64,000 nucleotides of DNA from Patescibacteria group bacterium (GCA_040390045.1 JAZJZC010000001.1:36345-100344), one strand, 5' to 3'. Positions 1,723 through 64,000 are shown, numbered from the stretch's first letter. Translations and numbers: made by a program. Notes: generated from the sequence alone by a model not told the origin.

Positions 1723-1844
1723 GTGTTTAAATTCGAAATCCGAATATCGAAATCCGAAACAATCCCTAAATCCAAAATTTCAATATTTAAAATTTTGTGC
1801 TTTTAATTTGTTTCGAATTTCGCGCTTCGAATTTCGTGCTTTGT

Positions 1845-2312
1845 CTATTCGAGTTCAGTTATTTTATATTCAACAACGCCAACCGGAGTGGTAACTTTAA
1901 ATTGATCCGACTTCTTTTTTCCGATCATGGCTGAACCGAGCGGAGAATGAATCGAGAGTTTTGATTCGGCCAAGTTGGCTTCCTCGGAACCAACAATTTT
2001 AAATTTTGATTTTGATTTGTCTTTCAATTTTTCAATGTGAACCACAGATCCAATGCCCACCACTTCACTGTGATGAATCGACATGATTTCGGCAGACTTC
2101 AACATCGCTTCCAAACGAAGAATTTGATCTTCAATGTTTGCCTGATTTTCGCGAGCTTCGTGGTACTCGGCGTTTTCAGAAAGATCTCCGAGAGATTTGG
2201 CGTATTCGAGACTTTCAGCGACTTCTTTTCTTTTTACCGTTTTGAGTTCTTCAAGTTTTTTGGTCAATTCTTCAAACTTCTCCTTGGTCAGATATTCTTT
2301 TTTGTCATCCAT
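1845..2312 (-). CDS. greA: Transcription elongation factor GreA
   Basis: MDDKKEYLTKEKFEELTKKLEEL...SENAEYHEARENQ...PLGSAMIGKK motif set typical of GreA. Start is placed at internal M27 of the track ORF. Confidence 0.85.
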   Translation of the reverse strand: MDDKKEYLTKEKFEELTKKLEELKTVKRKEVAESLEYAKSLGDLSENAEYHEARENQANIEDQILRLEAMLKSAEIMSIHHSEVVGIGSVVHIEKLKDKSKSKFKIVGSEEANLAESKLSIHSPLGSAMIGKKKSDQFKVTTPVGVVEYKITELE

Positions 2313-2390
2313 ACGTGTAAATTTTAATTGCAATAATAAAAAATTGTATACATTGTGACCCCCAAAGTCAATGCTGTTCGCAGTCTTCAA

Positions 2391-2530
2391 TACGAAAATA
2401 GGAAAGTGAGTACGAACATACGAAAAAATACAAAAACTTTTGCCTGCTCTCTACAATTTTCGTATCATTTCGTATTTTCGTTAGTCCGCGTTTCGTATGG
2501 AAGGGCGGAAAGCGAGGTATTTTCGTATGA
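2391..2530. repeat. Array of ATACGAA / TTCGTAT heptamer repeats with overall dyad symmetry (copy A), in the greA promoter region
   Basis: Seen directly: tacgaaaata...tacgaacatacgaaaaaatac on the left, ttttcgtatcatttcgtattttcg...tttcgtatgg...ttttcgtatg on the right. Same motif family as 30778-30835 and 39756-39862. Confidence 0.7.
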
Positions 2531-2540
2531 CAACTCAACA

Positions 2541-3572
2541 CTACGCAATAGAATAGACTCCATCCTTGGTCTTCTTGAAAAATTTAGGATTTTGCAAATT
2601 GACAATGATGGTGTTCTCTTTGACATACCTCTCCTTCATCACCTTATCGATAATTTGTTCTCGGTTGAGCGGTCCATTGCTCTCTAAAACCTTCCTGATG
2701 ACATCTTTGACAACTCCTGACATGTATCCCCATTCGGCGAGCGCGTAGAGGCCTCGGCCAACGAGTACAAATCGAGGATCTTTGATGAGTTCGTTGTGGG
2801 TAGTGGCAATATGAGCTTTCTTACCGAAAAGTTTTTCAATCGACTTTGCGACTTCTCTAAAGTGAATTGGAGAACCGTGTCGGCGAATGACCAAAAAGGC
2901 GTAATCGCGCATGCCTTTGGCGTGAATATTTGGAGAAGATTTAAGTCCCCATTCACCAAGCGGATTTTTACCAATAGTTTTTGAAAGTTCAAGCCAGCGC
3001 TTGATCACGTCATTCTTAGATTTATAGTCATCAGAAATATCTTCAACATGCGTGAGAAAGTGCGCAATAATATCGAGTTCAGAAACCAAATCTTTGTCAG
3101 AAAGATTTTTATAAAGTTTTTTCAAAGCGTCGTGAACTTTTTTGGCTAGTGAATCACTGACATGCCAGCGGTGTTTGAAATTTTCATCTTCTTTTTCGCG
3201 TTTAAATGGATCACCCAAAACCAAAAGCAACTGAATGTGATTTTGAGTGCTCTTGTCTTTGGCGACGTACTCAAGAAAATTTTCCTCGCTAATAATGCCA
3301 CCAAGCTTATGAAAAAGTGCTTCCAACTCGGAAAAAACGCCTTTTTCTTTTGCGTAGGACTCAGCTCGCTTGATGCTGTGAACGGCATAATTTTCAATCT
3401 GTCTGACTCGTTCGCGGGTGATACCATATTTCTTGCCGATGGCTTCTAGGGTCATCTTTTTGGAATCTTTGTCGAGTCCATAGCGACTGACAATCACATC
3501 CCGCGCGCGATCAGGCAAGATGGCGAGAAGCCTCTTGACCACTTGTTTTGGATTGAAAGTAATGACGTTCAT
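2541..3572 (-). CDS. Sigma-70 region-4 (HTH) domain protein with a C-terminal winged-helix-like domain, putative transcription factor
   Basis: N-terminal VIVSRYGLDKDSKKMTLEAIGKKYGITRERVRQIENYAV matches sigma-70 region 4. No sigma region 2 is present. Confidence 0.6.
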   Translation of the reverse strand: MNVITFNPKQVVKRLLAILPDRARDVIVSRYGLDKDSKKMTLEAIGKKYGITRERVRQIENYAVHSIKRAESYAKEKGVFSELEALFHKLGGIISEENFLEYVAKDKSTQNHIQLLLVLGDPFKREKEDENFKHRWHVSDSLAKKVHDALKKLYKNLSDKDLVSELDIIAHFLTHVEDISDDYKSKNDVIKRWLELSKTIGKNPLGEWGLKSSPNIHAKGMRDYAFLVIRRHGSPIHFREVAKSIEKLFGKKAHIATTHNELIKDPRFVLVGRGLYALAEWGYMSGVVKDVIRKVLESNGPLNREQIIDKVMKERYVKENTIIVNLQNPKFFKKTKDGVYSIA

Positions 3573-10408: not shown

Positions 10409-13400
10409 CTACTGAGTCGTGCTTGTTGCCGTGGTAGTCGAAACGTCAGCGTGCGAAAACAAACTCACAATCCAACGCCAAGGTTTGAGAATAATTGAAC
10501 CGGCAAAGTTTCTGAGGCCTTCGAAGATATTCTTAGGTGATGTTGTACTTGCTGTATCATCTGCAACCGTAGAAGAAGAATTTGAACTATCGTCACTAAC
10601 GGTGGTCGCTGGTACCGTTCCTGTAGTGTTGGCGGAAAAAATATTGGTTTTTCCTGCATCAACTGTTTTTGTTGGATTGTAGGCGTTTCCCCAAAGGGTA
10701 CTCAACATCATCGCTCTGAAATCATTGATTTCAATTTGTTCCGCAACCGTAACAGGAAATGGTCGCTGACAGTAAATTTCGTTTACTTTTTTCTTGGTTG
10801 TGATGTAAGTAAATTCAGTTGGTCCAGGAAGCGCCCATGGTGCCAAGATATCATCCCAATATTTTACTTGGAAGGCATCCACACCAACAATAGTTGGATC
10901 ATCGTAGATTCCAGTGATTTGTAGATCCTTCATGCCTTCAAAATCTCGAAGGAAGACCTGCAATTTTCGGACTTCAACTGGATTATTGTTCCAGCCTTTT
11001 TTCAAGTGATCGTACAAGTAGTAACATACGCCTGGTGTAACGGGAGTCGATGAAGCAAAGGCTCCTAATACAACGCCGTTTACAGGTCCTACGTTAATTG
11101 GAACCGGTGGGCCGTTGCTACCTCCTCCGCCCCCACCACCTCCCCCTCCTCCACCGCCACCTCCACTTGTGCCTCCACAATTAGTACATGGAGCTGGATT
11201 TACTGTGAATGAAACACTTGAACCGTTGTTTGTTGAATCGGTATCAGTTTGAGATGAACTTGCGTTTGCAGAGTTAGTAATAGTTGTACTTTCGGTGCCG
11301 AGTTTAACTTTGGCTTTCAAAGTAAGGCTCGTACTTGAACCGTTAGCCAAGTTTCCAACCGTCCACAGGCCAGTGGTTGTACTGTAGCTACCAATAGAAG
11401 TACTTGCGGAAATAAATTCCAATCCTGCAGGTAACACGTCAGTGACTGAAACTCCTGTCGAAGAAAGTGTTCCGAGGTTCGTTAATACGAGAGTGTAAAT
11501 AATTTCATCGCCAACGCTCGCTGTGGTTTTGTTAGAAGTTTTGGTAATACTCAAGTTGACACCTCCACCTCCACCACCGCAGTTCGAAGTACAACCAGGT
11601 GTGTTTACAGTAAATGATACGGCTCCAGTATTGTTTGTCGAATCAGTATCAGTTTGTGTTGAACTGGCGATAGCGGTGTTGGTAATAGTTGAACCTTCGG
11701 TTCCCGCTTTTACCTTAGCTTTCAAAACTAAAGTTGTAGTTGAGCCATTCGTCAAATTTCCGATAGTCCAAAGACTGGTTGTGGTGCTGTAACTACCGAG
11801 CGATGTGCTGGCGGAAATAAATTCCACACCGGTTGGCAGAATATCGCTCAAAGAAACTCCTGTTGAAGAAAGTGTTCCGAGGTTTGTCAGTACAATGGTG
11901 TAGATAACTTCATCACCGACATTTGCCGTAGTTTTATTGGCAGTTTTTGTGACACTCAAGTTAACGCCACTGGTTCCTCCGCCACCACAGTTTGAAGTAC
12001 AGACGACTGGATTTACGATGACGTTCACTGTCGCGGTGTTGTTTGAAGAATCGGTATCAATTTGAGTTGAAGTCGCCGCTGCAATGTTGCCAATAGTGAG
12101 GCCTTCGTTCCCTGCCTTTATTGTAGCTTTCAAAATAAGGGTCGTGGTTGCATTTTTCGCCAAATTTCCAATGGTCCAGAGTGAAGTTGAGGTGCTGTAA
12201 CTACCAATACTCGTGCTCGCTGAAACAAATTGCAACTGCGATGACAAAACATCAGTGACAGAAACTCCGGTTGCGGCATCTGGCCCAGCGTTTGAAACAG
12301 AGATCGTGTAGGTGACTTGATCGCCGACATTAGCGTTTGTTTTATCAGCAATTTTGGTAAGACCGAGGTTAACACCAGAAATTGGAACTGGAACAACGAT
12401 AACATTTCGCGTAACTGAAGCACTCAAACCTCCCGAGTCAGTGACCGTGTAGGTGAGTGTGTACGTGCCAAGCGTGCTCGTGCTGACAGTTCCGGTAACC
12501 ACAATTTGTGATGTGAGATTGCCATCTTCGAGGTCAGTGGCAGTAGCTCCGGGATCGGTAAAGACATGACCCAAGATAACAGTGATTGGATTGGCACCGA
12601 CAAGCGTAATAACCGGCGCGGTGTTTGTTGGTGGATTAACTGGACCATTAGGACAGGTAGAAGCGGTTGTGGTGTACGAATAGGTTACCGCAACGGAACT
12701 TGAAGCGGTAAGCAAAGGGAAATAACTGTAGGGGCCGGTAGTAAAATCTCCTATCAAATTGAGAGTTGAGAAAGATTGTCCTGAAACATCTTCGGTAACA
12801 TTTACACCACCGGTTGTCGTGCTAACGAAACTTAAAAGTTCTGTTGGGTCAGTAATCGTCAACAAGGCATCACTTTGAGAATATGTGCTTGTGCCAGTAC
12901 CGTATGAACTTGCGCCAGCATAATCGAGCGCGCCATCGGCGGCATTAACTGTAACTGGACCGAAGTAACTGGTGAAATATAATTTTGATAGATGTCCCGG
13001 CACACTAAACGTGCTGGTCGCCAAAAGACCGCCAGAAATTGAAATCGGGTGGGTAGCAATGTTCTCTACCTTTTGATTGATATTTGCCTCAGCGTAGTGC
13101 TTGAGAGAAAGAGAAGTCAGAGTTCCAAGAGCAGGATCGAAATATTTAATTTTTCCTTGCTTGGTAAAATCAGCCTTAGTTGTTGGGAAAATTAAAGTGT
13201 CAGAGTATTGGCAGGAAATTGGAGCAGGAGGTGGAGGCGGCAAAGGATTACAAACAGCGTTAATCTCCGCATCTCCATCGTTTAACATACTACCTCCACC
13301 TAAAGCAGAAATATATCGGAAGGCCTGTGGAAACAACCAAATGGTTGTGTCGTTGTCAGAAATCCAGTTTGTTGGGCCATCAGGGTAGGTTCCAATTTCT

Positions 13401-14449
13401 ATACCAGAAGTCCAAGGACCAGCTGGACTATCGGAACCAAAAAGGGCACCCTCGTGAGCTTCGTTTGGAGTTTCTCCGTGGTCAATAGATGGAACAAGAT
13501 AGACCATGTTGCTACTGGTTGCAGTAGTAGTTCCCATATCCCAAACTCCCCTTCCTGGATAACCACTAAATCCTGCAGGATTGCTAAACACCTGAACCCA
13601 TTTATGATCGATAAAATCTCCGGAATGTGGATCGCTGTTGTATACCCAATCATAAGCAGTAGGACTGGTTTCCTCACCAGTTACCATTCCCGTAGTGAGA
13701 AGAACTCCACAAGAACCGATATTCAAGGTTGTTGGTGCGGTTGGGCAAGGAGCAGTGCTGGTGAAAGAATAAGTTACTACAACAGAATTCGAAGCATAGA
13801 TCAAAGGAAAATAACTCCATGGTCCTGAAGGAGTGCTTGAAGCGATGTTGAGGAATGAGAACGACTGACCGGAAACATTTTCGGTAATATCAACGCCACC
13901 AGCACCAGAATTAACATAATTTAAAAGTTCAGCAGGATCGTTGATTGCAATCGAGGTATCGTTTTGAGAAAAAGTTGTGGTACCAGTGTCGTACGAACTT
14001 GAACCAGCATAATCGAGAGCTCCATCGTACGCGGTTATGTCGACTGGACCGAAATTACTAGAAAAAAGCAAATTTGAAGTATGTCCTGGAAGACTCAATG
14101 TGCTGGTTGCACTGAGGCCACCACCACTTGAAATTGTATGATCAGAGACGTTTTCTGCCTTCTGGCTTACATCAACGATAGAAATGTGCTTGATAGAAAG
14201 ACTTGTGAGAGTACCGAAGGCGGGATTAAAGTACTTGATTTTTGCCTGCTGTGTAAAATCAGCCTTCGCAACGCCGAAAACAATGGTGTCAGAAAGCTGA
14301 CAGGAATTGCTTGTTGTCGTTGCCGCACGTACAAGGAGGTTTGAAGATGGCACAGCCAAAATCATTAGGGACAAAAACATGACGAAAAGCGATGTGGTGA
14401 TTTTTTTCTTGAGATTGCTGATCTTGCTCGTTGATAAATATTTTTTCAT
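10409..14449 (-). CDS. Giant secreted cell-surface protein: signal peptide, two duplicated ~190-aa N-terminal domains, an Ig-like domain, three tandem DUF11 repeats, a poly-Gly linker, and a C-terminal PG_binding_1-like domain
   Basis: N-terminal hydrophobic signal. GVNLGLTKIADKTNANVGDQVTYTISVSNAGPDAATGVSVTDVL... repeated three times (DUF11). GGGGGGGGGGGGGGGG linker. C-terminal VRKLQVFLRDFEGMKDLQITGIYDDPTIVGVDAFQVKY resembles a peptidoglycan-binding domain. Confidence 0.85.
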   Translation of the reverse strand: MKKYLSTSKISNLKKKITTSLFVMFLSLMILAVPSSNLLVRAATTTSNSCQLSDTIVFGVAKADFTQQAKIKYFNPAFGTLTSLSIKHISIVDVSQKAENVSDHTISSGGGLSATSTLSLPGHTSNLLFSSNFGPVDITAYDGALDYAGSSSYDTGTTTFSQNDTSIAINDPAELLNYVNSGAGGVDITENVSGQSFSFLNIASSTPSGPWSYFPLIYASNSVVVTYSFTSTAPCPTAPTTLNIGSCGVLLTTGMVTGEETSPTAYDWVYNSDPHSGDFIDHKWVQVFSNPAGFSGYPGRGVWDMGTTTATSSNMVYLVPSIDHGETPNEAHEGALFGSDSPAGPWTSGIEIGTYPDGPTNWISDNDTTIWLFPQAFRYISALGGGSMLNDGDAEINAVCNPLPPPPPAPISCQYSDTLIFPTTKADFTKQGKIKYFDPALGTLTSLSLKHYAEANINQKVENIATHPISISGGLLATSTFSVPGHLSKLYFTSYFGPVTVNAADGALDYAGASSYGTGTSTYSQSDALLTITDPTELLSFVSTTTGGVNVTEDVSGQSFSTLNLIGDFTTGPYSYFPLLTASSSVAVTYSYTTTASTCPNGPVNPPTNTAPVITLVGANPITVILGHVFTDPGATATDLEDGNLTSQIVVTGTVSTSTLGTYTLTYTVTDSGGLSASVTRNVIVVPVPISGVNLGLTKIADKTNANVGDQVTYTISVSNAGPDAATGVSVTDVLSSQLQFVSASTSIGSYSTSTSLWTIGNLAKNATTTLILKATIKAGNEGLTIGNIAAATSTQIDTDSSNNTATVNVIVNPVVCTSNCGGGGTSGVNLSVTKTANKTTANVGDEVIYTIVLTNLGTLSSTGVSLSDILPTGVEFISASTSLGSYSTTTSLWTIGNLTNGSTTTLVLKAKVKAGTEGSTITNTAIASSTQTDTDSTNNTGAVSFTVNTPGCTSNCGGGGGGVNLSITKTSNKTTASVGDEIIYTLVLTNLGTLSSTGVSVTDVLPAGLEFISASTSIGSYSTTTGLWTVGNLANGSSTSLTLKAKVKLGTESTTITNSANASSSQTDTDSTNNGSSVSFTVNPAPCTNCGGTSGGGGGGGGGGGGGGGSNGPPVPINVGPVNGVVLGAFASSTPVTPGVCYYLYDHLKKGWNNNPVEVRKLQVFLRDFEGMKDLQITGIYDDPTIVGVDAFQVKYWDDILAPWALPGPTEFTYITTKKKVNEIYCQRPFPVTVAEQIEINDFRAMMLSTLWGNAYNPTKTVDAGKTNIFSANTTGTVPATTVSDDSSNSSSTVADDTASTTSPKNIFEGLRNFAGSIILKPWRWIVSLFSHADVSTTTATSTTQ
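11270..12385 (-). repeat. Three ~360-bp nucleotide-level tandem repeats encoding the DUF11 modules of the surface protein
   Basis: Near-identical stretches (e.g. ccaatagaagtacttgcggaaataaattccaa / ccgagcgatgtgctggcggaaataaattccac) recur at ~360-bp spacing. Coding, not CRISPR. Confidence 0.7.
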
Positions 14450-19529: not shown

Positions 19530-20486
19530 TTACCCTCTACGCGAGCTAAGCGCAAGTTTGATTGAATGGTCAAGAAAACCCTCGAGAGAGAGCCCTACGG
19601 AATCTATTGATTTCCCAAATGCTGAATCGGGCGATAGGCTTGGCAAAGTATCTACACCCAAAAAATAAATTCCACGAGTTGGAGATACGACAAAGTGCGA
19701 CTGTGAGTAATGCCGGAGACCTAGTACCTCGTGAATTTTTTTTGCCATATCCTTAATTTTCATTTTTTCAATTTCAGAAAATCGACCGGGGCTAAAAATG
19801 TTTTCTACACTTCGATCGGTATCTTTACTAAAAACTAACTCCGCGGGCAACAAAGAATACAAAGCGTCCCCACGATACTGTTCCAGTATTCCGCATGCCG
19901 CTTCCCTACCAGCAACAGATTCTTCGATAATAATTTCTGGAGAAAATTCGAAAGCTTTAGAAAGCGCAGACTTCAAATCGGAAAAAATTCTTACGATAGA
20001 AACTCCGGCTGTGTTTGACACTGCAGGTCGTATCAGCGATGGATTGGTAATACTTTTCCAGATATCGAGAAGACTCATCGTATCAATGATCTCTTTTTTA
20101 AAAATCTTATACACCGGCATTCGGATTCCCTGACTCTTTAAAATATTTTTTTCATGACCTTGGTGGTTTGAAAATAATGCGGCGAGATGACCAGAGCCAG
20201 TATACGGAATATTAAAAATATCGAGGGCTCGTTGTAACTTCAAATCTTCTCCTGACTCACCATGGGTTGCGTTGAAAATAACATCGATTTTTTTGAAAGC
20301 ATTTACTGGATCTATTGCCACACCATGAATATGCCAAACCCCGGCCTGATCAATAAAAACATCAACAGGAGCGTAATTTTCAGGCAAACTCTTTAAAACC
20401 TGTGAGCCGGTTTTTAACGAATGGTGGTGTCTCTTGGATTTACCTCCGCGAACAACCCCAACTCGGATTTTTGATCGAGATGCCAT
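19530..20486 (-). CDS. ddl: D-alanine--D-alanine ligase
   Basis: KIRVGVVRGGKSKRHHHSLKTGSQV... N-terminal Ddl pattern, ATP-grasp core, C-terminal catalytic region. Confidence 0.75.
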   Translation of the reverse strand: MASRSKIRVGVVRGGKSKRHHHSLKTGSQVLKSLPENYAPVDVFIDQAGVWHIHGVAIDPVNAFKKIDVIFNATHGESGEDLKLQRALDIFNIPYTGSGHLAALFSNHQGHEKNILKSQGIRMPVYKIFKKEIIDTMSLLDIWKSITNPSLIRPAVSNTAGVSIVRIFSDLKSALSKAFEFSPEIIIEESVAGREAACGILEQYRGDALYSLLPAELVFSKDTDRSVENIFSPGRFSEIEKMKIKDMAKKIHEVLGLRHYSQSHFVVSPTRGIYFLGVDTLPSLSPDSAFGKSIDSVGLSLEGFLDHSIKLALSSRRG

Positions 20487-30909: not shown

Positions 30910-31626
30910 ATGGAAAACAACAACCCCAACGAAACTGTCCCAGAAGAGCTTGATTCAGAAAAAATTCATCGGATCATAAAAGAAAAGGTTCACAGAATTG
31001 ATCACGAATTTACGCACGGTTTTGAATTTATTAAAAATTACAATAAGTCAGTAACTTTTTTCGGTTCGGCGCGTTTTACTGATAACAATCCTCACTATGA
31101 GCAAGCAAGAAACTTGGCGCGAAAAATTTCTGAACTCGGCTATACGATTTTGACCGGTGGCGGAGGTGGTATCATGGAAGCGGCCAATCGTGGTGCGTTT
31201 GAAATCGGCAACCCTTCAGTGGGCCTCAACATCAGACTTCAAAAACGACAGGGAACAAATCACTACACTACCGACGCTATCGAGTTTGATTACTTCTTCG
31301 CCAGAAAGGTTGCCCTTTCCTTCGCCGCCGAAGCCTATTTATTTTTCCCCGGAGGCTTTGGCACGTTGGACGAAATGTTTGAAATCCTCACACTCATTCA
31401 AACGCGAAAAATTAGAAAAATTCCAATCATTTTAGTTGGGCACGACTTTTGGGATGACCTACAGGTATTTATTAAAAACGTCATGCTCGGGAGACACAAG
31501 ACTATCAACGCCGAGGACATGAACCTCTACACTATTACTGACGACGACGATGAAATTTTGGAAATTATTAAAAAAGTACCGATCAAACCAATGGTACGTA
31601 GCACTGGCGATCCAGCGCACTATTAA
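30910..31626 (+). CDS. LOG-family (TIGR00730) Rossmann-fold nucleotide-binding / phosphoribohydrolase protein
   Basis: FFGSARFTDNNPHYEQARNLARKISELGYTILTGGGGGIMEAANRGA...PGGFGTLDEMFE, the family's signature motifs. Confidence 0.85.
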   Translation: MENNNPNETVPEELDSEKIHRIIKEKVHRIDHEFTHGFEFIKNYNKSVTFFGSARFTDNNPHYEQARNLARKISELGYTILTGGGGGIMEAANRGAFEIGNPSVGLNIRLQKRQGTNHYTTDAIEFDYFFARKVALSFAAEAYLFFPGGFGTLDEMFEILTLIQTRKIRKIPIILVGHDFWDDLQVFIKNVMLGRHKTINAEDMNLYTITDDDDEILEIIKKVPIKPMVRSTGDPAHY

Positions 31627-32102
31627 TTATCCAATTTTTGGACGTTCTCAATCGCGTGAGATAACAGTTTCGACCCATCGGCAGTGAAATGAAATTCTGC
31701 TTTCAGTGCTTGCCCAGCCAAGACTTTTGGCAACCACAGTGGGTCGTCGATCCACATTTTTTCAAATGGTAATTGAGCAACAGGAAACCACTCCGGCTTC
31801 ATTTCTTCAGTTTCAACAGGTTCGCCTTCCCATTTTTTGGCAACAAAGACGTGACACACTTGATCCCACTCAGGCCTGCCGTCAAAATAAAATTGAAGAT
31901 GTGCCCGAGGCGTAAGTGTGCCCTTATTAATTTCAACCCCAATCTCTTCCTGTGCTTCTCGAACGCAGGCATCAACGATTGATTCGACCCTCTCAACTTT
32001 TCCACCCACCCCGTTAAATTTTCCCATTCCAAATCCGCGCTTTTTCATTGCGAGAAGCACCTTGTTACCTTTGACCAAAAAGCAAAGTGTTGTTGATTTC
32101 AT
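31623..32102 (-). CDS. NUDIX hydrolase
   Basis: Nudix box GKFNGVGGKVERVESIVDACVREAQEEIGVEI. Start is placed at the internal MKSTTLCFLV. Confidence 0.8.
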   Translation of the reverse strand: MKSTTLCFLVKGNKVLLAMKKRGFGMGKFNGVGGKVERVESIVDACVREAQEEIGVEINKGTLTPRAHLQFYFDGRPEWDQVCHVFVAKKWEGEPVETEEMKPEWFPVAQLPFEKMWIDDPLWLPKVLAGQALKAEFHFTADGSKLLSHAIENVQKLDN

Positions 32103-32145
32103 TACTGTATGATAACTTTTCATTAGAAAACAGGAAAGGAGGTTT

Positions 32146-32409
32146 ATGATTGTAACCATTCTGCGTTGGACTCTACCCGTCGTACTTTTTGTAGTTTTCG
32201 TCTCCTTCATTTACACGTGGAAATTTGTTCTCCAGTACAACATCGCTGTTGGAATCGAAAGAAGGTGCCCGAAAAAAAGAGCCGCGGCGAAAGAGTATAT
32301 TGAAAAACGAGGAGGCTTCAATCCCCATGCCTACGCCGGGGCAATCATCTGGATGATAGCGAGCGCAGTGATTGTTTTCTCGGGCACCATGTGGATGATC
32401 ATTTCTTGA
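32146..32409 (+). CDS. Small two-TM membrane protein (87 aa) with a strong SD (aggagg)
   Basis: ggaaaggaggtttATG. Two hydrophobic helices. Its own terminator follows. Confidence 0.6.
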   Translation: MIVTILRWTLPVVLFVVFVSFIYTWKFVLQYNIAVGIERRCPKKRAAAKEYIEKRGGFNPHAYAGAIIWMIASAVIVFSGTMWMIIS

Positions 32410-36989: not shown

Positions 36990-38240
36990 TTACAGCTTCA
37001 AGCTTCTCTCCCCCATTGCTTCCGTAATCCTTCCAATGCCGATCGCAAACGCCGCATCACGAAGCGAAATTTTCTTAGCACAAGCCATCTGCCAAACCGC
37101 CTTAAAACTATTGACCATAATTGGCTCGAGTCGCGCCCGCACTTCTTCTGCCGTCCAATAATAATTTTGAACATTTTGCACCCATTCAAAGTAACTCACC
37201 GTCACGCCGCCAGCGTTTGCCAACACATCTGGAATTAAAAATACCTTTTTTCGACTCAAAATTTCGTCAGCCTCTGGAGTAGTTGGGCCATTCGCTAGTT
37301 CTACAATAATTTTTGCCTTAATCTCTCCTGCGTTTCCAACATGGATCACCCCGTCAAGCGCCGCCGGAATAAGCACATCACAATCCGAGACAAGCAATTC
37401 TTCATTTGAAATATTTTTTGCTCCCTTAATTGCAACATCTTTAAACGAACCTTTATCGTGCTTTACTCTCTCAAGTTGTTCAACATCAAATCCCACAGAA
37501 TTATATATTCCGCCGTGACTATCAGAAATCCCAACAATGACATACCCAGCTTTTTGTAAAATTTTCGCCATCGTTCCACCCGCATTACCAAAACCTTGAA
37601 CGATCACCCGCAAACCTCTCTCCTTCATGCCAAGGGCTTTCACCAACTCGCGTAACACAAATGCTCCGCCGTCTGCCGTTGCGGTATCCCTTCCCAAACT
37701 TCCACCGAGCGAAAGTGGTTTGCCTGTGATTAATCCCGGTTCACTTTTACCGGTATTTTTTTCAAACTCATCTAAAATAAATGCCATAATCTGACCGTTG
37801 GTATAGACGTCTGGCGCAGGAATATCCTTGTTAGCGCCAATGTATGGAGTCATCACTTTTGCCCAAGCTCGAGAAATTTTTTCGATTTCATTTGGGCTCA
37901 ATTTTTTAGGGTCACAGACCACACCTCCCTTCCCGCCTCCGAGCGGAATCCCAACCACTGCGCATTTGACCGCCATAGCCGCCGCCAAAGCTTTCACTTC
38001 ATCGAGGTCAGCATCAGGATGAAATCGAATTCCCCCTTTGTACGGCCCGCGAGCATTATTAAACTGCACACGATAGGCTTGAAAGGTTTGTTTCTTGCCA
38101 CTGTCCATCGTTATTGAAATCTTTTTATCCAGAATTCGATTTGGGGTGGTTAATTTTTTAATAAATTCTTTCGGCAACCCGAGCAACTTTACCGATTTCT
38201 CCACATTGACCGAATAATTCTTAAACGGAGTTTTTTTCAT
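36990..38240 (-). CDS. gdhA: Glutamate dehydrogenase (Glu/Leu/Phe/Val dehydrogenase family)
   Basis: GGGKGG catalytic glycine-rich motif (PLGGGKGGVVCDP), NAD(P)-binding GFGNAGG. Confidence 0.9.
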   Translation of the reverse strand: MKKTPFKNYSVNVEKSVKLLGLPKEFIKKLTTPNRILDKKISITMDSGKKQTFQAYRVQFNNARGPYKGGIRFHPDADLDEVKALAAAMAVKCAVVGIPLGGGKGGVVCDPKKLSPNEIEKISRAWAKVMTPYIGANKDIPAPDVYTNGQIMAFILDEFEKNTGKSEPGLITGKPLSLGGSLGRDTATADGGAFVLRELVKALGMKERGLRVIVQGFGNAGGTMAKILQKAGYVIVGISDSHGGIYNSVGFDVEQLERVKHDKGSFKDVAIKGAKNISNEELLVSDCDVLIPAALDGVIHVGNAGEIKAKIIVELANGPTTPEADEILSRKKVFLIPDVLANAGGVTVSYFEWVQNVQNYYWTAEEVRARLEPIMVNSFKAVWQMACAKKISLRDAAFAIGIGRITEAMGERSLKL

Positions 38241-52454: not shown

Positions 52455-53348
52455 TTAAAGGCCCACACGCTTAAACTTCGGGAAAGTCCCCTCCGGCCAC
52501 CCAAAGGTGACGTAGTAGTTCCCTTGTGGAAAACTAAAAACCTCTTGTGCCGGGTCTGGCGGTCCGAGAGGAATCGAGCCTGACCACTTTTTTCCCACTC
52601 CCGCCACCCGCCACTGGAAACTTGTGGCAACGGCCACGATTTCACCTTGCCGATTGAGCATTGTTGCCCGAAGCACAAGTGTTCGTTCCTGCGACAGTGC
52701 GAGTGTGAGAAGCGGCGAATTTTCTTCGCCTTGCCAGACCGACGCCCCGAACCCAGCGATATCGCCAGTTGGAATACCTTCGTCCGAACTTACAACAACG
52801 CCGCGAATGTGAGAGGGGAAGTTTTGCTTTACGAGCATCACCTGCCCTCGCCGTTCAGGGGGATTAATTGGAAAACCATTTCCCCCTCCTCCCCCACCGC
52901 CATCGAAATTTGGCACGAGGGATCGGAAGCTAGAGAGCCGGAGCTCTCCCTGTTGCATCGGCATTTGCCAACCCGACCACGGATTGAACTCGGGACGGTA
53001 GGTATGATTGCCGTCAAAGACTGCGCGCCCGAAGCAGTCCCGAAGAGCGGTGTCGATAGTGACGCCGTTGTCCGCAGGTTTGATAATCAGGAAGTTTAAA
53101 ATTTGGATGTTAAGGTGATTTAAAACCTCAACACCACCCTGATTACCGCTGACGTGCGCGAATGTCCCACCACCCCGGAAGGGTTTGACCGCCGGCCCGT
53201 AGGCTTGGATGCTTCCGGAGACGACAGTGTCCAGAGCGGCGGCCGCGGCCTCCGCATACAGCATCTGCCTAGTGGGCAGACCAACGATTTGGGCCGTGGC
53301 GGTGGCGGTGAAGGCGAGCAAGCTCGCAACGAAACAGAGTATTTTCAT
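52455..53348 (-). CDS. Secreted hypothetical protein (signal peptide, Gly-rich linker), moderately GC-rich
   Basis: MKILCFVASLLAFTATATAQ signal. FDGGGGGGGNGFP linker. Confidence 0.55.
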   Translation of the reverse strand: MKILCFVASLLAFTATATAQIVGLPTRQMLYAEAAAAALDTVVSGSIQAYGPAVKPFRGGGTFAHVSGNQGGVEVLNHLNIQILNFLIIKPADNGVTIDTALRDCFGRAVFDGNHTYRPEFNPWSGWQMPMQQGELRLSSFRSLVPNFDGGGGGGGNGFPINPPERRGQVMLVKQNFPSHIRGVVVSSDEGIPTGDIAGFGASVWQGEENSPLLTLALSQERTLVLRATMLNRQGEIVAVATSFQWRVAGVGKKWSGSIPLGPPDPAQEVFSFPQGNYYVTFGWPEGTFPKFKRVGL

Positions 53349-53483: not shown

Positions 53484-54731
53484 TTACTGACCTAGTTCTT
53501 TAACAAAATTTTGGAATAATTCCCCTTTCTCCTCAAAGTTCCTCCACAAACTATAGCTTGGTGAGGCGGTCGAGAGCAGGCAGATAGTGCCTTTGGGAGT
53601 ATTATCATACGCAAAAACCAACGCCATTTTCATGTCGTCAGTGGCAAAAATTTTCGGCACACTCAAACCCATTTCAGTTGAAACTTTTTTAAGCGCCTTT
53701 AGTATTCGTGCCCCGCTTTCTGGAAACAAAACTACCGCGCCGATTCCCTTTTCAAAAATTTTCTGCGCTAGCAAATCAAAATTGTATCCCCTATCCGTTC
53801 CGCCAAGAAAAATAGTACCTACGTGTGACAAGGCTTCGATACCGGCGATGGTTGATTCAGGCGTCGTCGAAATAGCATCATCATAAAACGTAATACCTTT
53901 GAAAGTTCCAACTTTTTCAAGTCGGTGTGGAAGAGGTTTAAATTCACGAACAGCTTTTTCAATAACTGCGTCATTAACGCCGAGAATCCGCGCGGCCGCG
54001 GCGGCCGCGCGGACATTATCCACATTATGCTTCCCCAAAAGCGGAATTATTTCTGAAACAAAGGGCAACTTTTCCATGAAAGGCACCGCCACACCTCGCC
54101 CTTCTTTTGCCAACTTCTTTAGCTCTTCAAAATCTGAGTTGTAGACAAAATAATCTTTTTCCGTTTGAAAAGAAATAATATTTTTCTTAGCACTCCAATA
54201 ATTTTCAAGCCCACCATGGTAATCCAAATGATCTGGGAAAAAGTTAATGAAAACCGCAACATGGGGTGAGAGCCGCAAATCTTCGAGTTGATAACTCGAC
54301 AATTCACAAACATAGATTCTGTCTTTAGGCTCTTCAATCAAAAGTTCATTGAGCATTGGTATCCCAATATTGCCCACGAGCCTCACATCTTTGCCATCAA
54401 CCTTCAGCATTTCGAAAATAAGAGAAGTCGTTGTACTTTTACCTTTAGTCCCGGTGACGCCAACAACTTTGCATTTCGTATTGGCGAAAAAAATATTAGT
54501 GGCCGTAGTATATTTCTGCGAAACTTTTCCTCCAGGAATTCCCGCGGTTTTTACAACCAGATCGTAGTCTTTCAATTTTTCAAGATAGTCTGGCCCATCT
54601 TTCTGATCAACAATGCCGATTTCTTTTTCAGGAAAAAAATGCTTTAGAAAACGAAGTGTCGCCTGCCCTTCGACTCCAAAACCTAAAATAGCTATTTTTT
54701 TATCTCTCAGTTCTGAAATTTTCATAGGCAA
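53484..54731 (-). CDS. murD: UDP-N-acetylmuramoyl-L-alanine--D-glutamate ligase (Mur ligase, MurD-type)
   Basis: KIAILGFGVEGQA Rossmann N-domain, GVTGTKGKSTTT P-loop, DDAISTTPESTIAGIEAL C-terminal domain. Confidence 0.8.
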   Translation of the reverse strand: MPMKISELRDKKIAILGFGVEGQATLRFLKHFFPEKEIGIVDQKDGPDYLEKLKDYDLVVKTAGIPGGKVSQKYTTATNIFFANTKCKVVGVTGTKGKSTTTSLIFEMLKVDGKDVRLVGNIGIPMLNELLIEEPKDRIYVCELSSYQLEDLRLSPHVAVFINFFPDHLDYHGGLENYWSAKKNIISFQTEKDYFVYNSDFEELKKLAKEGRGVAVPFMEKLPFVSEIIPLLGKHNVDNVRAAAAAARILGVNDAVIEKAVREFKPLPHRLEKVGTFKGITFYDDAISTTPESTIAGIEALSHVGTIFLGGTDRGYNFDLLAQKIFEKGIGAVVLFPESGARILKALKKVSTEMGLSVPKIFATDDMKMALVFAYDNTPKGTICLLSTASPSYSLWRNFEEKGELFQNFVKELGQ

Positions 54732-56038
54732 TGGTTAAAATCCGCAGGAAGTAATGAAGTAGCGTTTTTTTCGAGCAACGTTTCGCGACTCATTTTAATT
54801 TCTGGAAAAACTTTTTCAAAATGTGCAACAAACTCATGCATAATCACATCCCCCTCATAGCCACCTTTTTGTCGAGCTAAATAAAAGGCCAATTGGGTTT
54901 CTTCAGGTGTTCCAACGCAATCAAAAGGTTTAATCTCCTCGAGCCCCAAAAGTTCTCGATAGGTTTTCTGTAAAGACTTTTCGGCGAAAAGATTTTTTCC
55001 GAAAATCTTTAGAACTTCTGCCTTCGGCACAAACGCTGAGAGCAAAGCAAAAACAAACGCGCACTTTGGACACTCGCCACACCAGAGCCCGTGTTCTGTT
55101 TTCTCAATTTTAAAATTCTTATTACAACTGGAAAAACTTTCAAAATAGTGTGGATACTTTGAAAAAAATTCAACAATTTTTATTTCATGAAATGCGCGGA
55201 TAAAAGAAAAATAGATAATAGACGGCGTTACAAAATTCGCCAAATATTGCTGAAGCATTTTTTCAAACTCATGTGATTTACTCCACTGGTGATTGATGTA
55301 TTCGCCCAAATATTCCATGTTGCCATAGTTGGCACTCTCTTCATTTGAAATTAACACAGAATCGTAGCCATATAGGAGTGCAGCCAAAACAGCCGTCGTT
55401 GAATAGATACAGGAAATTGGTACATGGCCGTTGTAAACATCTGTACGCTGGTTAAGTTCAAACAATTGCGGATCAATCTCACGCCTTACAATCAAAAGAC
55501 TTTTTCCTGCAATCCCTGCAACTTTTTTCTGAATCTCATATTCATTTAGTGAAAACAGGTCAAATTCTTTCCCACAACTTTTTAATAACTCAGTCGTCAC
55601 AATTGAATCCTTACCGCCGCCCCAGAGCACAAGAGATTTCCCCACTTTTGGCAAAACCTCTACCTTTTGTTTTTGTACGTCACTAACTGGAAAATTAACC
55701 AGACCTCGAAAATCAATGTTGTTTTTATAAAAAAATTCGCCCAACCCCTTCGTATAGACTGTGTTCCAAAACTTGGCCTGTTCAGGAGAAAGTTTGATGG
55801 TTTCTAACTTTATTTCCTTCGAACAAAAAAGTTTCCAGTAACTGATACCTAAAATCAAGAACAGCGTGTCAAAAGCGGCTGTCAAAACGGCTTCAGGTGC
55901 TCGTGTGAAATCCGCACGAGCTGGATCGAAAGATATTTTTTCCACAAAAGAAAACTGCTCGTCATCGTGAACGAGTTCATACGTAAAATGCACGGTCGCC
56001 GCCTCCCTATTGATTTTGTAGCTTTTGAAGGTAAACAT
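54722..56038 (-). CDS. murD-adjacent conserved unknown (438 aa) with a PP-loop-like LVLWGGGKDS motif and C-terminal CGECPKC. Candidate MurL-type epimerase (inference)
   Basis: Overlaps the murD start by 10 nt, which suggests an operon. No confident family recognised from sequence. Confidence 0.45.
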   Translation of the reverse strand: MFTFKSYKINREAATVHFTYELVHDDEQFSFVEKISFDPARADFTRAPEAVLTAAFDTLFLILGISYWKLFCSKEIKLETIKLSPEQAKFWNTVYTKGLGEFFYKNNIDFRGLVNFPVSDVQKQKVEVLPKVGKSLVLWGGGKDSIVTTELLKSCGKEFDLFSLNEYEIQKKVAGIAGKSLLIVRREIDPQLFELNQRTDVYNGHVPISCIYSTTAVLAALLYGYDSVLISNEESANYGNMEYLGEYINHQWSKSHEFEKMLQQYLANFVTPSIIYFSFIRAFHEIKIVEFFSKYPHYFESFSSCNKNFKIEKTEHGLWCGECPKCAFVFALLSAFVPKAEVLKIFGKNLFAEKSLQKTYRELLGLEEIKPFDCVGTPEETQLAFYLARQKGGYEGDVIMHEFVAHFEKVFPEIKMSRETLLEKNATSLLPADFNHCL

Positions 56039-56147
56039 GCCTTGAGTAAACGTTATGGTATCATATTATTCAATGTTAAAAAGTCTGTTTCAAAAATGGC
56101 GTCACTGGCGTTTTCCCTACATTCCACTTGTCGAAATTACGATAAAC

Positions 56148-57215
56148 ATGAGTCGGCTGTTGGGAAATTTACAAACCTTTCAAAAAATTGACCCACGTGT
56201 AGCCATCGCTCCGGTACTGAAAAGTAACGCGTACGGACACGGACTCGCCCTCGTTGCCAAAATTTTAGACACCCAAAATTTGCCGTTTTTAATTGTGGAT
56301 TCCTACTACGAAGCGGTGATATTACGAAATGAGAAAATTCGAACACCTATTCTTATTATCGGCTATACGCTCATTGAAAATATTTTAAAAAATAAACTTA
56401 AAAACGTTGCCTTTACAATCGTGAGTATCGAGCAACTCGAAGAAATTTCCAAAAATTTGAAGACACCGACAGATTTTCATCTCAAAATTGATACCAACAT
56501 GCACCGCCACGGCATACCACCTGAGCAGTGCCAAAAAGCGATGTCGCTCATTCGTGCGAATGGTTCTTTACACCTTTCCGGAATTTGTTCGCACTTAGCT
56601 GATTCTGATAGCACCACAAAAGAGTTTACGGAAAACCAAATTAAAATTTGGAACAGCCTAACTGAGGATTGGAAAAAGGAATTTCCAAATATCAAATACT
56701 TTCATCTCTCAAACACCGCAGGATTTTCCTATTCAAAAAATATTCATGCGAACATGGCTCGTCTTGGCATTGGATTGTACGGCATTGATCCAAGTGCCGA
56801 TCAGCGTTTCAGCGACTTACAGCCAGTGCTTGAAATGAAAACTTTGATTAGCGGCGCCAAGGATTTAAAAAGGGGAGAAAAAGTCGGTTACGGAGCAACG
56901 TTTGAAGCGACGAAAAATATGCGCATCGCTACCATTCCCGCAGGATATTACGAAGGTATTGATCGCCAACTTTCAAATTGCGGTTTTGTTAAAATAGAAA
57001 ATACCTTTTGTCCGATTGTGGGCCGAGTGAGCATGAACATTGCCACCATTGATGTGACAAATGTTCCACACGCTACCATTAATACATCCGTCACCGTTAT
57101 TAGCAAAATACCTTCTGACAAAAACTCGATTCAAAATAACGCAAAACTAGTCGAAAAAATCCCATACGATTTAATGGTTCATATCCCGCAAACATTGAGA
57201 AGACGAGTGGTCTAG
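56148..57215 (+). CDS. alr: Alanine racemase (PLP-dependent)
   Basis: AIAPVLKSNAYGHG (PLP-lysine motif), C-terminal beta domain. Start could alternatively be the upstream codon at 56055. Confidence 0.8.
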   Translation: MSRLLGNLQTFQKIDPRVAIAPVLKSNAYGHGLALVAKILDTQNLPFLIVDSYYEAVILRNEKIRTPILIIGYTLIENILKNKLKNVAFTIVSIEQLEEISKNLKTPTDFHLKIDTNMHRHGIPPEQCQKAMSLIRANGSLHLSGICSHLADSDSTTKEFTENQIKIWNSLTEDWKKEFPNIKYFHLSNTAGFSYSKNIHANMARLGIGLYGIDPSADQRFSDLQPVLEMKTLISGAKDLKRGEKVGYGATFEATKNMRIATIPAGYYEGIDRQLSNCGFVKIENTFCPIVGRVSMNIATIDVTNVPHATINTSVTVISKIPSDKNSIQNNAKLVEKIPYDLMVHIPQTLRRRVV

Positions 57216-57221
57216 CTTCTT

Positions 57222-57650
57222 TTACAAAAGCTTTTTCTTATAAATTGCAAAGAAATTTGGAAGTTGTGAGTGAACATTCTCAGGAATATTTTTAAATGTA
57301 AACCAATTCAGATCATCAAACTTGTGTGGCTCGCCAATTTTGACTTTTTCCCGATCAACTAAAACCTTAAAATCAAGCGCGATCCAATGTGTCTTTTTAC
57401 CGTCGTGCACTCGGTGAACATCTCTGAACCCGAGAAATTCCGAACGCAAAACATCAGTGCAATATTCTTCTGCAATCTCTTTTTTTAGAGCATGTTCAAC
57501 GGTTTCCCCAAATTCAAGTGCGCCGCCTCCAATATCCCATACGCCTTTTTCATCTCGCGCGTTTTGATTTCGTTTAGCCATCACAAATTCACCCTTGCCA
57601 TCGTGACAAAAGTAGACAACGCTAACGCCGGTGAAGTCGAGGCCTTTCAT
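57222..57650 (-). CDS. NUDIX hydrolase
   Basis: Nudix box GGGALEFGETVEHALKKEIAEEY. Confidence 0.8.
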   Translation of the reverse strand: MKGLDFTGVSVVYFCHDGKGEFVMAKRNQNARDEKGVWDIGGGALEFGETVEHALKKEIAEEYCTDVLRSEFLGFRDVHRVHDGKKTHWIALDFKVLVDREKVKIGEPHKFDDLNWFTFKNIPENVHSQLPNFFAIYKKKLL

Positions 57651-62394: not shown

Positions 62395-64000
62395 TTATAC
62401 TCGCTCACCTTTTGATTCTGGTTTTGGCCAAGGAGAAATCGCGAGTGGTGAGGTCGGATTATATAAACTCATATACAATTCTTCAGTCATGAACGGCATG
62501 AACGGATGCAAGATGACGAGATACTCGGCATAAACATGCTGTAATACTGATAGAGAAACTTCAACTTCAGCTTTCTCTTGAATGCCCTGTGCGTATCTTT
62601 CCAAATCTGAAAAAAAGCTACGAATCTTTTCTTGAGCTAAGGCAAAAGAAAATGCGTCAATATGTAAGGCGACGACAGAAGCAAGCCTTTCGACGGCCAA
62701 CAAAATATTTTTATCTTCAGCTGATAACTCCAGCTGTTCAGAAAATTTTAATGAATATTGTCTCGCTAAAGAAACAATCGAACCAACGTTCCACAATCTT
62801 TGAGAAAATTCCTGAAAAGAAACCAGCTGCTCTTCGGAAAAAATAAAATCTTCCTGCATTGTGGTGTAGGACACGAGCGCCATCCTCGTCACATCCGCTC
62901 CAAATTTTTCTAAATAATATTCAAGAGAAACGGCATTGCCAAGACTTTTGCTCATTTTTTGTCCGTCCAAACCTTTCAAAAGCCGGTGAAGATAGACTGT
63001 TTTAAAAGGCAATTTTCCACTTATGTATCGACTCAACAATAATTTTCTCGAAACTGACAATCGAAGCAAGTCGTGACCGATCACAATTGAATAGCTTGGG
63101 TAAAAATAAGAAAAATCGTCTGAGTCCAAATCTCCGAAAACAATTTCACTCCATTGTCCCGAGGAAAACCACGTATCAAACGTGTCAGTTTCAGGTAAAT
63201 ACAATTTCCCGTTCTCCTTTTCTAAAACCCAACTTGATCCTTCCGAAGCATAAATTCTTTCTAATCCTTGTGAAATTTCTTCGAGAGACACCCCCTGATC
63301 TAAAAATTGTTTTAAGTTTCCGTACTGTTTTTCGCCTGTGTCCGTATTAAACCAAACCGTAAATTTTGACGGATCAGAAACATCGTACCAAATAGGAATT
63401 TTAATCCCCCAAACATTCTGGCGCGCGATAGGCCAATCGTGCATTTTCCCCATCCACTCGATTAAGCCTTTCTCTCTCCATCTTGGAAGCACAACGAGAC
63501 CTTCCTTTTTAATAGCTTCAGTGGCAGGTTTTCTGAGCGGAGTTTTTTGATCATCCAACTTTAAAAACCATGTGAGCATAATCATGGTCTCAACAACGTG
63601 GCCACGTTTACATAGAAAAGTAGAATCCGTATAAGAATCATCAACTTTTTCAATCAAACCTCGTTCATTCAAAAAAAGTACTTCTCTATCTCGAGCCTCA
63701 AGTGGTTTCAAGCCAGGATACCGCTCGATCATATTTCCGTCCCAATCTAATAAATTTTGTGACGGAATAGAGTTACGCAAAGTATATTCGTAATCATATT
63801 TTTTATATGACGGAGAAAAAGGTGAAAGAAACTGATCGAGTTGTTCGGGATCAAACTTCCTCTTACTTGCTACAACACTGACCAACGCACCTGTGATCGG
63901 ATTTTTTAAAATTTTTCCAATATGACTTGCGTACCGTTTGTCTTCGGGATGAATCAAAACATGGGTGACTGCAAAAAGAAACTCTGGACGTGTCGTTGCT
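62395..64000 (-). CDS. valS: Valyl-tRNA synthetase, C-terminal ~535 aa. The N-terminus runs off the window end
   Basis: HPEDKRY (ValS signature), KMSKS, anticodon-binding and C-terminal coiled-coil. The frame is open upstream to position 64000 (...RPEFLFAVTHVLIHPEDKRY). Confidence 0.85.
   Translation of the reverse strand, partial: ATTRPEFLFAVTHVLIHPEDKRYASHIGKILKNPITGALVSVVASKRKFDPEQLDQFLSPFSPSYKKYDYEYTLRNSIPSQNLLDWDGNMIERYPGLKPLEARDREVLFLNERGLIEKVDDSYTDSTFLCKRGHVVETMIMLTWFLKLDDQKTPLRKPATEAIKKEGLVVLPRWREKGLIEWMGKMHDWPIARQNVWGIKIPIWYDVSDPSKFTVWFNTDTGEKQYGNLKQFLDQGVSLEEISQGLERIYASEGSSWVLEKENGKLYLPETDTFDTWFSSGQWSEIVFGDLDSDDFSYFYPSYSIVIGHDLLRLSVSRKLLLSRYISGKLPFKTVYLHRLLKGLDGQKMSKSLGNAVSLEYYLEKFGADVTRMALVSYTTMQEDFIFSEEQLVSFQEFSQRLWNVGSIVSLARQYSLKFSEQLELSAEDKNILLAVERLASVVALHIDAFSFALAQEKIRSFFSDLERYAQGIQEKAEVEVSLSVLQHVYAEYLVILHPFMPFMTEELYMSLYNPTSPLAISPWPKPESKGERV

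Follow-up and report, generated by a model that had tools for sequence, protein, structure and literature searches.

An alternative route to the D-glutamate of peptidoglycan, the MurL/MurD2 pathway of Xanthomonas oryzae, was reportedly described by Feng et al. in 2017. It is encoded by XOO_1319 (MurL) and XOO_1320 (MurD2), and orthologues have been tested in Micromonospora and Salinispora (PMC5808125, PMC8788868). The MurL reaction depends on ATP and Mg, uses one ATP with formation of AMP and runs from L to D only; MurL was described as lacking a recognisable domain, and its mechanism was left unexplained (PMC5808125, PMC8788868). The published distribution comprises Gamma- and Alphaproteobacteria (Xanthomonadales and a few Alphaproteobacteria) as well as rare actinomycetes (Micromonosporaceae), with low-similarity MurL matches in a fungus, cyanobacteria and an amoeba, and the pathway has been presented as a narrow-spectrum antibiotic target (PMC5808125, PMC8788868). 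Here we analyse a stretch of 64,000 nucleotides from the metagenome-assembled genome of an uncultured Patescibacteria group bacterium (GCA_040390045.1 JAZJZC010000001.1:36345-100344), referred to as the window and numbered from its first letter, in which a murD gene, an open reading frame (ORF) for a protein of 438 residues and an alr gene lie side by side. We consider it very likely that the first two constitute a murL-murD2 operon in this member of the Patescibacteria, i.e. the Candidate Phyla Radiation (CPR), whose ligase adds L-Glu that MurL then epimerises. The pathway type is already known, and the pair in the window is a divergent patescibacterial member of it.

Organisation of the locus

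The ORF listing confirmed the positions that a preliminary description of the window had given for the three genes:

53484-54731, minus strand: murD-like Mur ligase gene, 415 residues from a TTG start (ORF listing and TIGR01087)
54722-54731, minus strand: overlap of the murL stop and the murD start, read off the sequence
54722-56038, minus strand: murL, the ORF for 438 residues (NF041275; Pfam MurL_N and MurL_epimerase_C on an identical product)
56055-57215, plus strand: alr, alanine racemase of 386 residues (TIGR00492, 276.8 bits), divergent from murL

According to a direct reading of the sequence, the murL stop codon TGA occupies positions 54724-54722, and there are two candidate starts for murD. 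The TTG at 54731 yields the 10-nucleotide overlap stated in the preliminary description; the ATG at 54725, which was chosen by both the NCBI and the Logan gene calls, yields a MurD product of 413 residues and a classic 4-nucleotide ATGA overlap. The overlap of murL and murD suggests translational coupling. Like the Xanthomonas pair, the locus lies outside any division/cell-wall (dcw) gene cluster. In the NCBI annotation the products are named 'hypothetical protein' (MES2087456.1, here MurL), 'UDP-N-acetylmuramoyl-L-alanine--D-glutamate ligase' (MES2087455.1) and 'alanine racemase' (MES2087457.1), and JGI likewise names the MurD of the window a D-glutamate ligase.

Identity of the 438-residue protein

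The protein had been said to match no known family, which proved wrong. It matches the NCBIfam model NF041275 ('MurL_Xanthmoales, UDP-N-acetyl-alpha-D-muramoyl-L-alanyl-L-glutamate epimerase') with an E value of 1.5e-107 and 359.9 bits, residues 2-435 being aligned to positions 10-440 of the 447 in the model. In addition, precomputed Pfam assignments place PF26299 (MurL_N) and PF26298 (MurL_epimerase_C) on an identical product and on all 120 of the top 120 homologues. Our own Pfam scan gave no match for the protein, since the copy that was scanned does not contain the two MurL models. The likeness to MurL that the preliminary description had surmised also became apparent in a tblastn search of a plasmid collection, where the annotated (PGAP) MurL of Xanthomonas sacchari was found with 34.8% identity over 85% of the length (E 4e-70).

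An alignment of 30 CPR homologues (alignment A1), all of which match NF041275 and no other model, revealed 71 invariant residues. When the X. sacchari sequence was included in a joint alignment, 58 of these 71 were identical in it, and the blocks GGGKDS, NGHxP, E-S-A, NHQWSK, SSCN, WCxxCxKC and KPxxCVG are common to both groups. The motifs LVLWGGGKDS and, towards the C-terminus, CGECPKC, which had already been noticed in the sequence, are indeed present, and both fall inside invariant blocks. More than 3,000 homologues were retrieved from a large protein database; the named ones among the top 120 are from Patescibacteria, and several are called MurL by JGI. Judged by these sequence comparisons, the product of the 438-residue ORF is a clear MurL homologue. 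Its identification needs no new concept, as Pfam, NCBIfam and JGI annotation already recognise such proteins.

Two observations were made on the plasmid-borne relatives. Three Pseudonocardia plasmids carry distant MurL paralogues (26-28% identity) that have kept the PP-loop, the NHQW block and the cysteine cluster. The one neighbourhood that was examined, on plasmid pLS1-1 (locus L084, 5959-7368), has no murD adjoining the paralogue, which is flanked by a gene for a very large hypothetical protein and by cell-wall hydrolase genes; the MurL family may thus have a second role. The X. sacchari sequence comes from a replicon of 508,653 bp in strain R1 that is titled 'plasmid unnamed' (L083, NZ_CP010410.1). 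Since it carries murL, murD, aspartate kinase/lysA, ssb and a polyprenyl synthetase gene, it looks like a piece of the chromosome or a chromid rather than a plasmid.

Conserved gene order and natural fusions

Species-representative genomes were scanned with two conserved MurL peptides as queries, and the best 80 of at least 588 stretches encoding relatives were compared as loci of 20 kb each (designated by L numbers; 40-54% identity). These 80 loci are nearly all labelled CPR; the genome of the window is not represented among them, and none holds a proteobacterial MurL. In 74 of them, fusions included, murL is followed on its own strand by a murD gene; in the other six the contig stops at murL. 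L017, L032 and L043 have 171, 516 and 1627 nucleotides, respectively, between the two genes, and elsewhere murD follows immediately. In the 56 unfused pairs (55 related loci and the window) the inferred murD start is offset from the murL stop by a median of -10 nucleotides, and 51 of the values lie within +/-40 nucleotides. In X. sacchari, murL precedes the ligase gene likewise, with an overlap of 20 nucleotides.

In 18 of the 80 loci, murL and murD form one stop-free in-frame ORF of about 820-1000 codons. These are L020 (9953-12577), L034, L035, L038, L042, L045, L051, L053, L055, L058, L059, L062, L064, L066, L067, L073, L077 and L079. At the junction, the C-terminus of MurL ('...IPxxF') leads straight into the GxGxxG strand at the N-terminus of MurD, without any linker. 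Since 74 of the 80 loci share the gene order, 18 as fusions, the murL-murD arrangement is not a product of chance. No description of natural MurL-MurD fusion enzymes was found in the literature that we searched.

The family is large. A profile search of 1.84 billion cluster representatives retrieved 3,484 clusters at E<=1e-3 and 1,607 at E<=1e-30, and about 22 of the 150 top family representatives are 800-900 residues long. MurL, alone or fused to MurD, is present in several loci labelled Saccharibacteria. In many of the loci, the CPR-type MurL (40-50% identity) belongs to an assembly titled 'uncultured Gammaproteobacteria bacterium', 'Weeksellaceae bacterium' or 'Bacillota bacterium' (L001, L005, L007, L009, L011, L034 and others). 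Such odd taxon titles are either placeholders or errors, or the MurL family extends past the Patescibacteria.

The ligase carries most of the MurD2 signature

In its general features the window ligase resembles canonical E. coli MurD (PDB 1uag/2uag). It shares the three-domain Mur ligase architecture, scores 268.7 bits against TIGR01087 murD (cutoff 211.95), and conserves the equivalents of the catalytic E. coli residues K115, N138, E157, H183, K198 (the carbamylated Lys position) and T321. Unlike in the canonical MurD/MurI system, the gene is coupled to murL instead of residing in a dcw cluster, no murI is seen nearby, and in the glutamate/ATP pocket Ile, Arg and Pro stand in place of Lys319, Lys348 and Ala414.

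It is important to note that such replacements have been linked to substrate choice. Between E. coli MurD and X. oryzae MurD2, Asp182 corresponds to Glu197, Lys348 to Arg358, Ala414 to Pro433 and Leu416 to Phe435 (PMC8788868). The R358K variant of X. oryzae MurD2 shifts toward D-Glu, the E197D/R358K double mutant is a D-Glu ligase and, conversely, E. coli MurD K319T gains acceptance of L-Glu (PMC8788868). Loss of Lys319 as a criterion is derived from this K319T result and from our alignment, and it is not part of a published family definition. The alignment comprised E. coli MurD, X. sacchari MurD2, the window MurD and 72-74 MurL-linked MurDs from the related loci. With the window ligase numbered according to the 415-residue product, the signature positions are:

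E. coli Asp182: Glu in X. sacchari MurD2 (X. oryzae Glu197); Asp167 in the window, 54231-54233, minus strand
E. coli Lys319: Ile (Ile339) in X. sacchari MurD2; Ile287 in the window, 53871-53873, minus strand
E. coli Lys348: Arg in X. sacchari MurD2 (X. oryzae Arg358); Arg314 in the window, 53790-53792, minus strand
E. coli Ala414: Pro in X. sacchari MurD2 (X. oryzae Pro433); Pro391 in the window, 53553-53561, minus strand, together with Ser392 (E. coli Ser415) and Tyr393
E. coli Leu416: Phe in X. sacchari MurD2 (X. oryzae Phe435); Tyr393 in the window

The window ligase is thus of the Xanthomonas MurD2 type at four of five positions, if the aromatic Tyr is counted for Phe. The preliminary description had pointed to the MurD2-specific residues as informative, and this expectation held at E. 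coli positions 319 (Ile), 348 (Arg), 414 (Pro) and 416 (Tyr) and failed at position 182, where Asp is found and not Glu. The similarity extends to the local motifs, which read 'NDSISTTP' in Xanthomonas, 'DDAISTTP' in the window and 'NDSKATN' in E. coli around Lys319; 'GGHDRG', 'GGTDRG' and 'GGDGKS', in the same order, around Lys348; and 'APSF', 'SPSY' and 'CASL' in the Ala414-Leu416 region.

The pattern is shared by the relatives. None of the 72 MurL-linked MurDs has Lys at position 319 (Ile 62, Ala 5, Leu 4, Ser 1), nor has any of the 120 closest database homologues (Ile 117, Leu 3). Arg occupies position 348 in all 72 linked MurDs and in 119 of 120 homologues, and Pro position 414 in 68 of 72 and in 119 of 119, respectively. 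By contrast with these relatives, E. coli MurD and three solved canonical MurDs (S. agalactiae, T. maritima and P. aeruginosa) all have Lys319 and Ala414. Position 182 is more variable: Glu outnumbers Asp by 57 to 17 in the linked MurDs, and the homologues have Glu in 81 cases, Asp in 35 and Gly in 4. Most of the closest relatives of the window MurD have Asp there, and so do 6 of the 18 MurL-MurD fusion proteins. Because it occurs in natural fusions, Asp182 is compatible with a MurL-coupled ligase, yet it is the main caveat on substrate choice. Taken by its residues, the 'D-glutamate ligase' of the window is probably in fact an L-glutamate ligase.

Predicted fold and proposed mechanism of MurL

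An AlphaFold2 model of the window MurL, calculated with alignment A1 as input, reached a mean predicted local distance difference test score (pLDDT) of 93.8 and a predicted template modelling score (pTM) of 0.91. When this model was compared with the PDB by Foldseek, QatC (9y01_B) was the best match (E 7e-6), and QueC was found with 2pg3 (E 2.5e-4) and 3bl5 (E 5e-4) at TM scores of 0.61-0.65, normalised to QueC. Cap9, a PP-loop protein of M. jannaschii and TtuA were also among the best matches, and all of these are PP-loop ATP pyrophosphatases. The fold search thereby bore out the guess of a PP-loop-like protein made in the preliminary description. A solved MurL structure was not found in the PDB, either by sequence or by Foldseek search, and a PDB sequence match of MurL to the ribosomal protein eL43 was dismissed as a spurious zinc-ribbon similarity.

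Three conserved elements of MurL may bear on its chemistry:

55604-55621, minus strand: GGGKDS, residues 140-145, predicted ATP/pyrophosphate-binding PP-loop
55061-55126, minus strand: C305-x14-C320-x2-C323-x2-C326 (SSCN ... WCGECPKC), predicted QueC-type structural zinc site
54911-54931, minus strand: KPFDCVG, residues 370-376, invariant block containing C374

Of the residues in GGGKDS, D144 is nearly invariant among the 30 homologues, and the other five (G140, G141, G142, K143 and S145) do not vary; Xanthomonas MurL has retained the motif, and an alignment pairs it with the E. coli QueC PP-loop. None of the four cysteines, three of which lie in WCGECPKC (residues 319-326; 55061-55084, minus strand), varies within the family, and all are present in Xanthomonas MurL. 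Compared by pattern, their spacing resembles that of Cys332/352/355/358 in QatC. Within the third block, K370, P371, C374, V375 and G376 are invariant in the 30 CPR homologues and kept both in Xanthomonas MurL and in the Pseudonocardia paralogue. One may speculate that C374 is an acid/base residue; it is conserved in Xanthomonas MurL and Cys72 is not.

PP-loop enzymes transfer AMP to a carboxyl or keto oxygen with release of PPi, and in QatC and QueC a structural zinc is held by a C...CxxCxxC motif (PMC13376578). The predicted Rossmann-like core of MurL with its SGGxDS-type loop (GGGKDS) agrees with QueC (2pg3/3bl5), QatC (9y01) and Cap9 (9nto), and C-terminal to the core MurL has a C...CxxCxxC motif similar in pattern to the zinc site of QueC and QatC. 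The predicted PP-loop fold and the four-cysteine motif fit the published ATP-to-AMP chemistry of MurL, which, like that of QueC-type enzymes, would begin with AMPylation of a carboxylate and involve release of AMP. Unlike QueC, MurL possesses an extra N-terminal MurL_N domain (approximately residues 1-125) and a distinct C-terminal helical region, and the outcome is stereoinversion and hydrolysis rather than attack by a second substrate.

From these elements we propose the following course of events. The MurD-type ligase would add L-glutamate, not D-glutamate, onto UDP-MurNAc-L-Ala. MurL would then flip the added L-glutamate to the D-glutamate of the cell wall. ATP would be bound by the GGGKDS loop of the QueC-like PP-loop core, and the four-cysteine motif would probably hold a structural zinc ion. 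In the acyl-adenylate that MurL most likely forms at the alpha-carboxylate of the terminal L-Glu, the alpha-proton would become acidic, so that it could be removed and returned from the opposite face. This may happen by way of an oxazolone-like intermediate, of the kind formed by activated N-acyl amino acids. Hydrolysis of the adenylate would release AMP and render the reaction one-way.

Adenylation could also serve to modify the stem peptide in another way. By QueC an adenylated carboxylate is converted to an amide, and the MurL-like protein might, for instance, amidate the Glu alpha-carboxylate to iso-glutamine without being an epimerase at all. The closest folds (QueC, QatC and Cap9) couple AMPylation to the attack of a second nucleophile and not to epimerisation, identity to the tested MurL lineages is only about one third, and the Pseudonocardia paralogue without adjoining murD indicates that the family can have other roles. 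On the other hand, the 58 of 71 CPR-invariant residues that are kept in X. sacchari MurL include all conserved blocks and span the whole length, gene order and overlap are as in Xanthomonas, the locus holds no amidotransferase or glutaminase partner, and a ligase signature of the L-Glu type is sensible only if an epimerase follows. We give this amidation scenario very little credence and retain MurL as an epimerase.

Glutamate racemase and the case for L-glutamate ligation

The scheme put forward in the preliminary description, ligation of L-Glu by a MurD2-type enzyme followed by epimerisation by MurL, is supported by the homology to MurL, the residues of the ligase and the conserved gene order. 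The pair in the window resembles that of Xanthomonas in full-length MurL homology, conserved motifs, the overlap of murL with the ligase start and the Ile, Arg, Pro and aromatic residue of the ligase pocket. It differs by its Patescibacteria/CPR host and by the fusion of the two enzymes in many relatives. Homology, fold, signature residues, gene order and fusions are our own evidence, and for the reaction itself we rely on published work with the enzymes of Xanthomonas, Micromonospora and Salinispora; by analogy, we infer that the CPR pair performs the same reaction.

Several points weigh against this assignment. Orthology with the tested MurL enzymes is inferred across an identity of only about 32-35%. 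The NF041275 score of 359.9 bits misses the equivalog cutoff of 700 bits, which is why NCBI labels the product 'hypothetical protein'; the model was built for Xanthomonadales and its cutoff is clade-specific, so that failing it does not exclude MurL function. The relationship to QueC would stand at the level of the fold of a predicted model, with a TM score of about 0.6 on the QueC side: Pfam QueC gave no match to MurL at E<=0.1, and hhalign of the MurL family against E. coli QueC aligned only 17 PP-loop columns with a probability of 4.6%. Canonical streptococcal MurD likewise has Arg at position 348, and this residue alone is not diagnostic. More importantly, the single exchange E197D shifts the stereospecificity of X. 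oryzae MurD2 (PMC8788868), and the window ligase has Asp at this very position. With Asp167 it might accept D-Glu as well or instead.

Neither Pfam/NCBIfam scans nor phmmer with E. coli MurI revealed a murI within the 64-kb window, and the Pfam/NCBIfam scans detected no D-amino-acid aminotransferase (class-IV aminotransferase) among its ORFs. The absence of murI covers 64 kb of the genome, cut from a contig of 323,682 bp, which likewise tempers the assignment. E. coli MurI had no phmmer match in the 80 related 20-kb loci either, and this carries little weight, each locus being about 2% of a genome. Moreover, glutamate racemase activity was reportedly found in Ca. Saccharimonas aalborgensis in 2024; accordingly, MurI would occur in at least some members of the CPR, which we also count as a point against.

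These findings lead to the alternative that the ligase is a normal D-Glu-adding MurD, supplied by a MurI or D-amino-acid aminotransferase encoded elsewhere, with the MurL homologue as a back-up or proofreading enzyme for mis-incorporated L-Glu. In Asp167 the ligase has what canonical MurD shows at E. coli position 182, the change to Asp moves the X. oryzae enzyme toward D-Glu, and the search for murI or an aminotransferase gene reached only the 64-kb window. The TIGR01087 score above cutoff and the name given by NCBI and JGI point the same way; yet Xanthomonas MurD2 is itself annotated as 'D-glutamate ligase' by the same pipeline, so that the name is without weight. Furthermore, Lys319 and Ala414, kept in the four canonical MurDs, are replaced here exactly as in Xanthomonas MurD2. 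Asp182 is present in one third of the fusions (6 of 18), where a D-Glu-specific ligase would make the epimerase pointless, and the near-universal operon linkage argues for an obligatory pair. A back-up function thus appears improbable to us, and the combination of an L-Glu ligase with an epimerase is the reading that we prefer.

Distribution and significance

The MurL-MurD pair is very widespread and, it appears, nearly ubiquitous in Patescibacteria, a group that is missing from the published distribution. In a literature search we found no paper linking MurL with Patescibacteria/CPR or with PP-loop/QueC proteins. Tentatively, and with some doubt, we suggest that MurL-MurD2 may be the standard CPR route to D-glutamate, considering its occurrence in at least 588 species-level genomes and in approximately 1,600-3,500 clusters at 50% identity. 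The enzymes would often be combined in a fused polypeptide able to channel the L-Glu intermediate, the Asp182/Ile319 subtype would represent a separate solution to L-Glu recognition, and the QueC-like PP-loop and zinc site would provide the mechanistic basis of ATP-dependent epimerisation. If this is true, MurL-MurD2 would explain the 'missing' glutamate racemase in reduced CPR genomes.

At the level of the window, the main consequence is a correction of the annotation from 'hypothetical protein' to MurL and from 'D-glutamate ligase' to a probable L-glutamate ligase. Broader interest attaches to the apparent near-ubiquity in CPR, the frequent fusions, the Asp182/Ile319 ligase subtype and, as a lead to the mechanism, the PP-loop/zinc architecture. 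A pair that occurs throughout Patescibacteria, often fused, changes the view of cell-wall making in very small, host-dependent bacteria, and the natural fusions together with the QueC-like PP-loop fold offer testable handles on the mechanism of ATP-dependent epimerisation.

The alr neighbour and flanking features

The divergent alr gene noticed in the preliminary description is real, but conservation of the system does not extend to it. It adjoins murL in 3 of 81 loci, i.e. in the window and in two of the 80 others, L004 and L013, both Taylorbacteria. Thus alr is a lineage-specific neighbour that belongs to the same pathway by function and lies outside the conserved murL-murD unit. One could imagine that the clustering reflects a dedicated supply operon for D-amino acids, for example with a broad-spectrum racemase that also gives D-Glu, given that both genes feed peptidoglycan synthesis and that the alr start lies 16-34 nucleotides from that of murL on the other strand. 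The rarity of the linkage, the divergent transcription and the TIGR00492 match of an ordinary alanine racemase make such an operon extremely unlikely, and alr was rejected as a component of the system for its rare linkage.

The start codons of murL and alr are 16 nucleotides apart, or 34 with the alr start chosen by NCBI (Met7, position 56073); the region in question is 56036-56150. Owing to this short distance, any promoters must sit inside the neighbouring coding sequence. A promoter-like match for murL (TTGAAA-17-AATAAT) is found at 56093-56065, within alr. A scan for promoters and terminators was no better than with shuffled sequence (15 sites against 9.1+/-3.1, and 6 against 4.8+/-2.0) and was given no weight.

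Ordinary housekeeping genes occupy the rest of the window, among them greA, leuS, ychF, ddl, uvrABC, tgt, gdhA, serS, dprA, topA, relA/spoT, parB, miaA, clpB and valS, and there are five tRNAs. Two of these genes are relevant to the cell wall:

19530-20486: ddl
36990-38240: gdhA, L-Glu supply

Since ddl, alr and gdhA are present, the window encodes peptidoglycan precursor synthesis.

Some minor features deserve mention. NUDIX hydrolase genes are located at 57222-57650 (minus strand), directly after alr, and at 31623-32210 (minus strand); in L072 a related NUDIX gene (12338-12925) abuts the murD end, which may be coincidence. Just downstream of murD, an ORF for 297 residues (52455-53348, minus strand) starts with a signal-peptide-like N-terminus and contains the run GGGGGGNG; it has no Pfam or NCBIfam match. 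A valS-like ORF for 520 residues (62395-63957, minus strand) covers only positions 223-700 of the 860-position ValS model, and less than 45 nucleotides separate an in-frame stop from the edge of the window. Possible explanations are a frameshift, a split gene or an N-terminal part that continues in another frame past the window. The largest gene of the window (10409-14449, minus strand) encodes a predicted surface protein of 1346 residues with three DUF11 repeats, a bacterial Ig-like domain and DUF7619.

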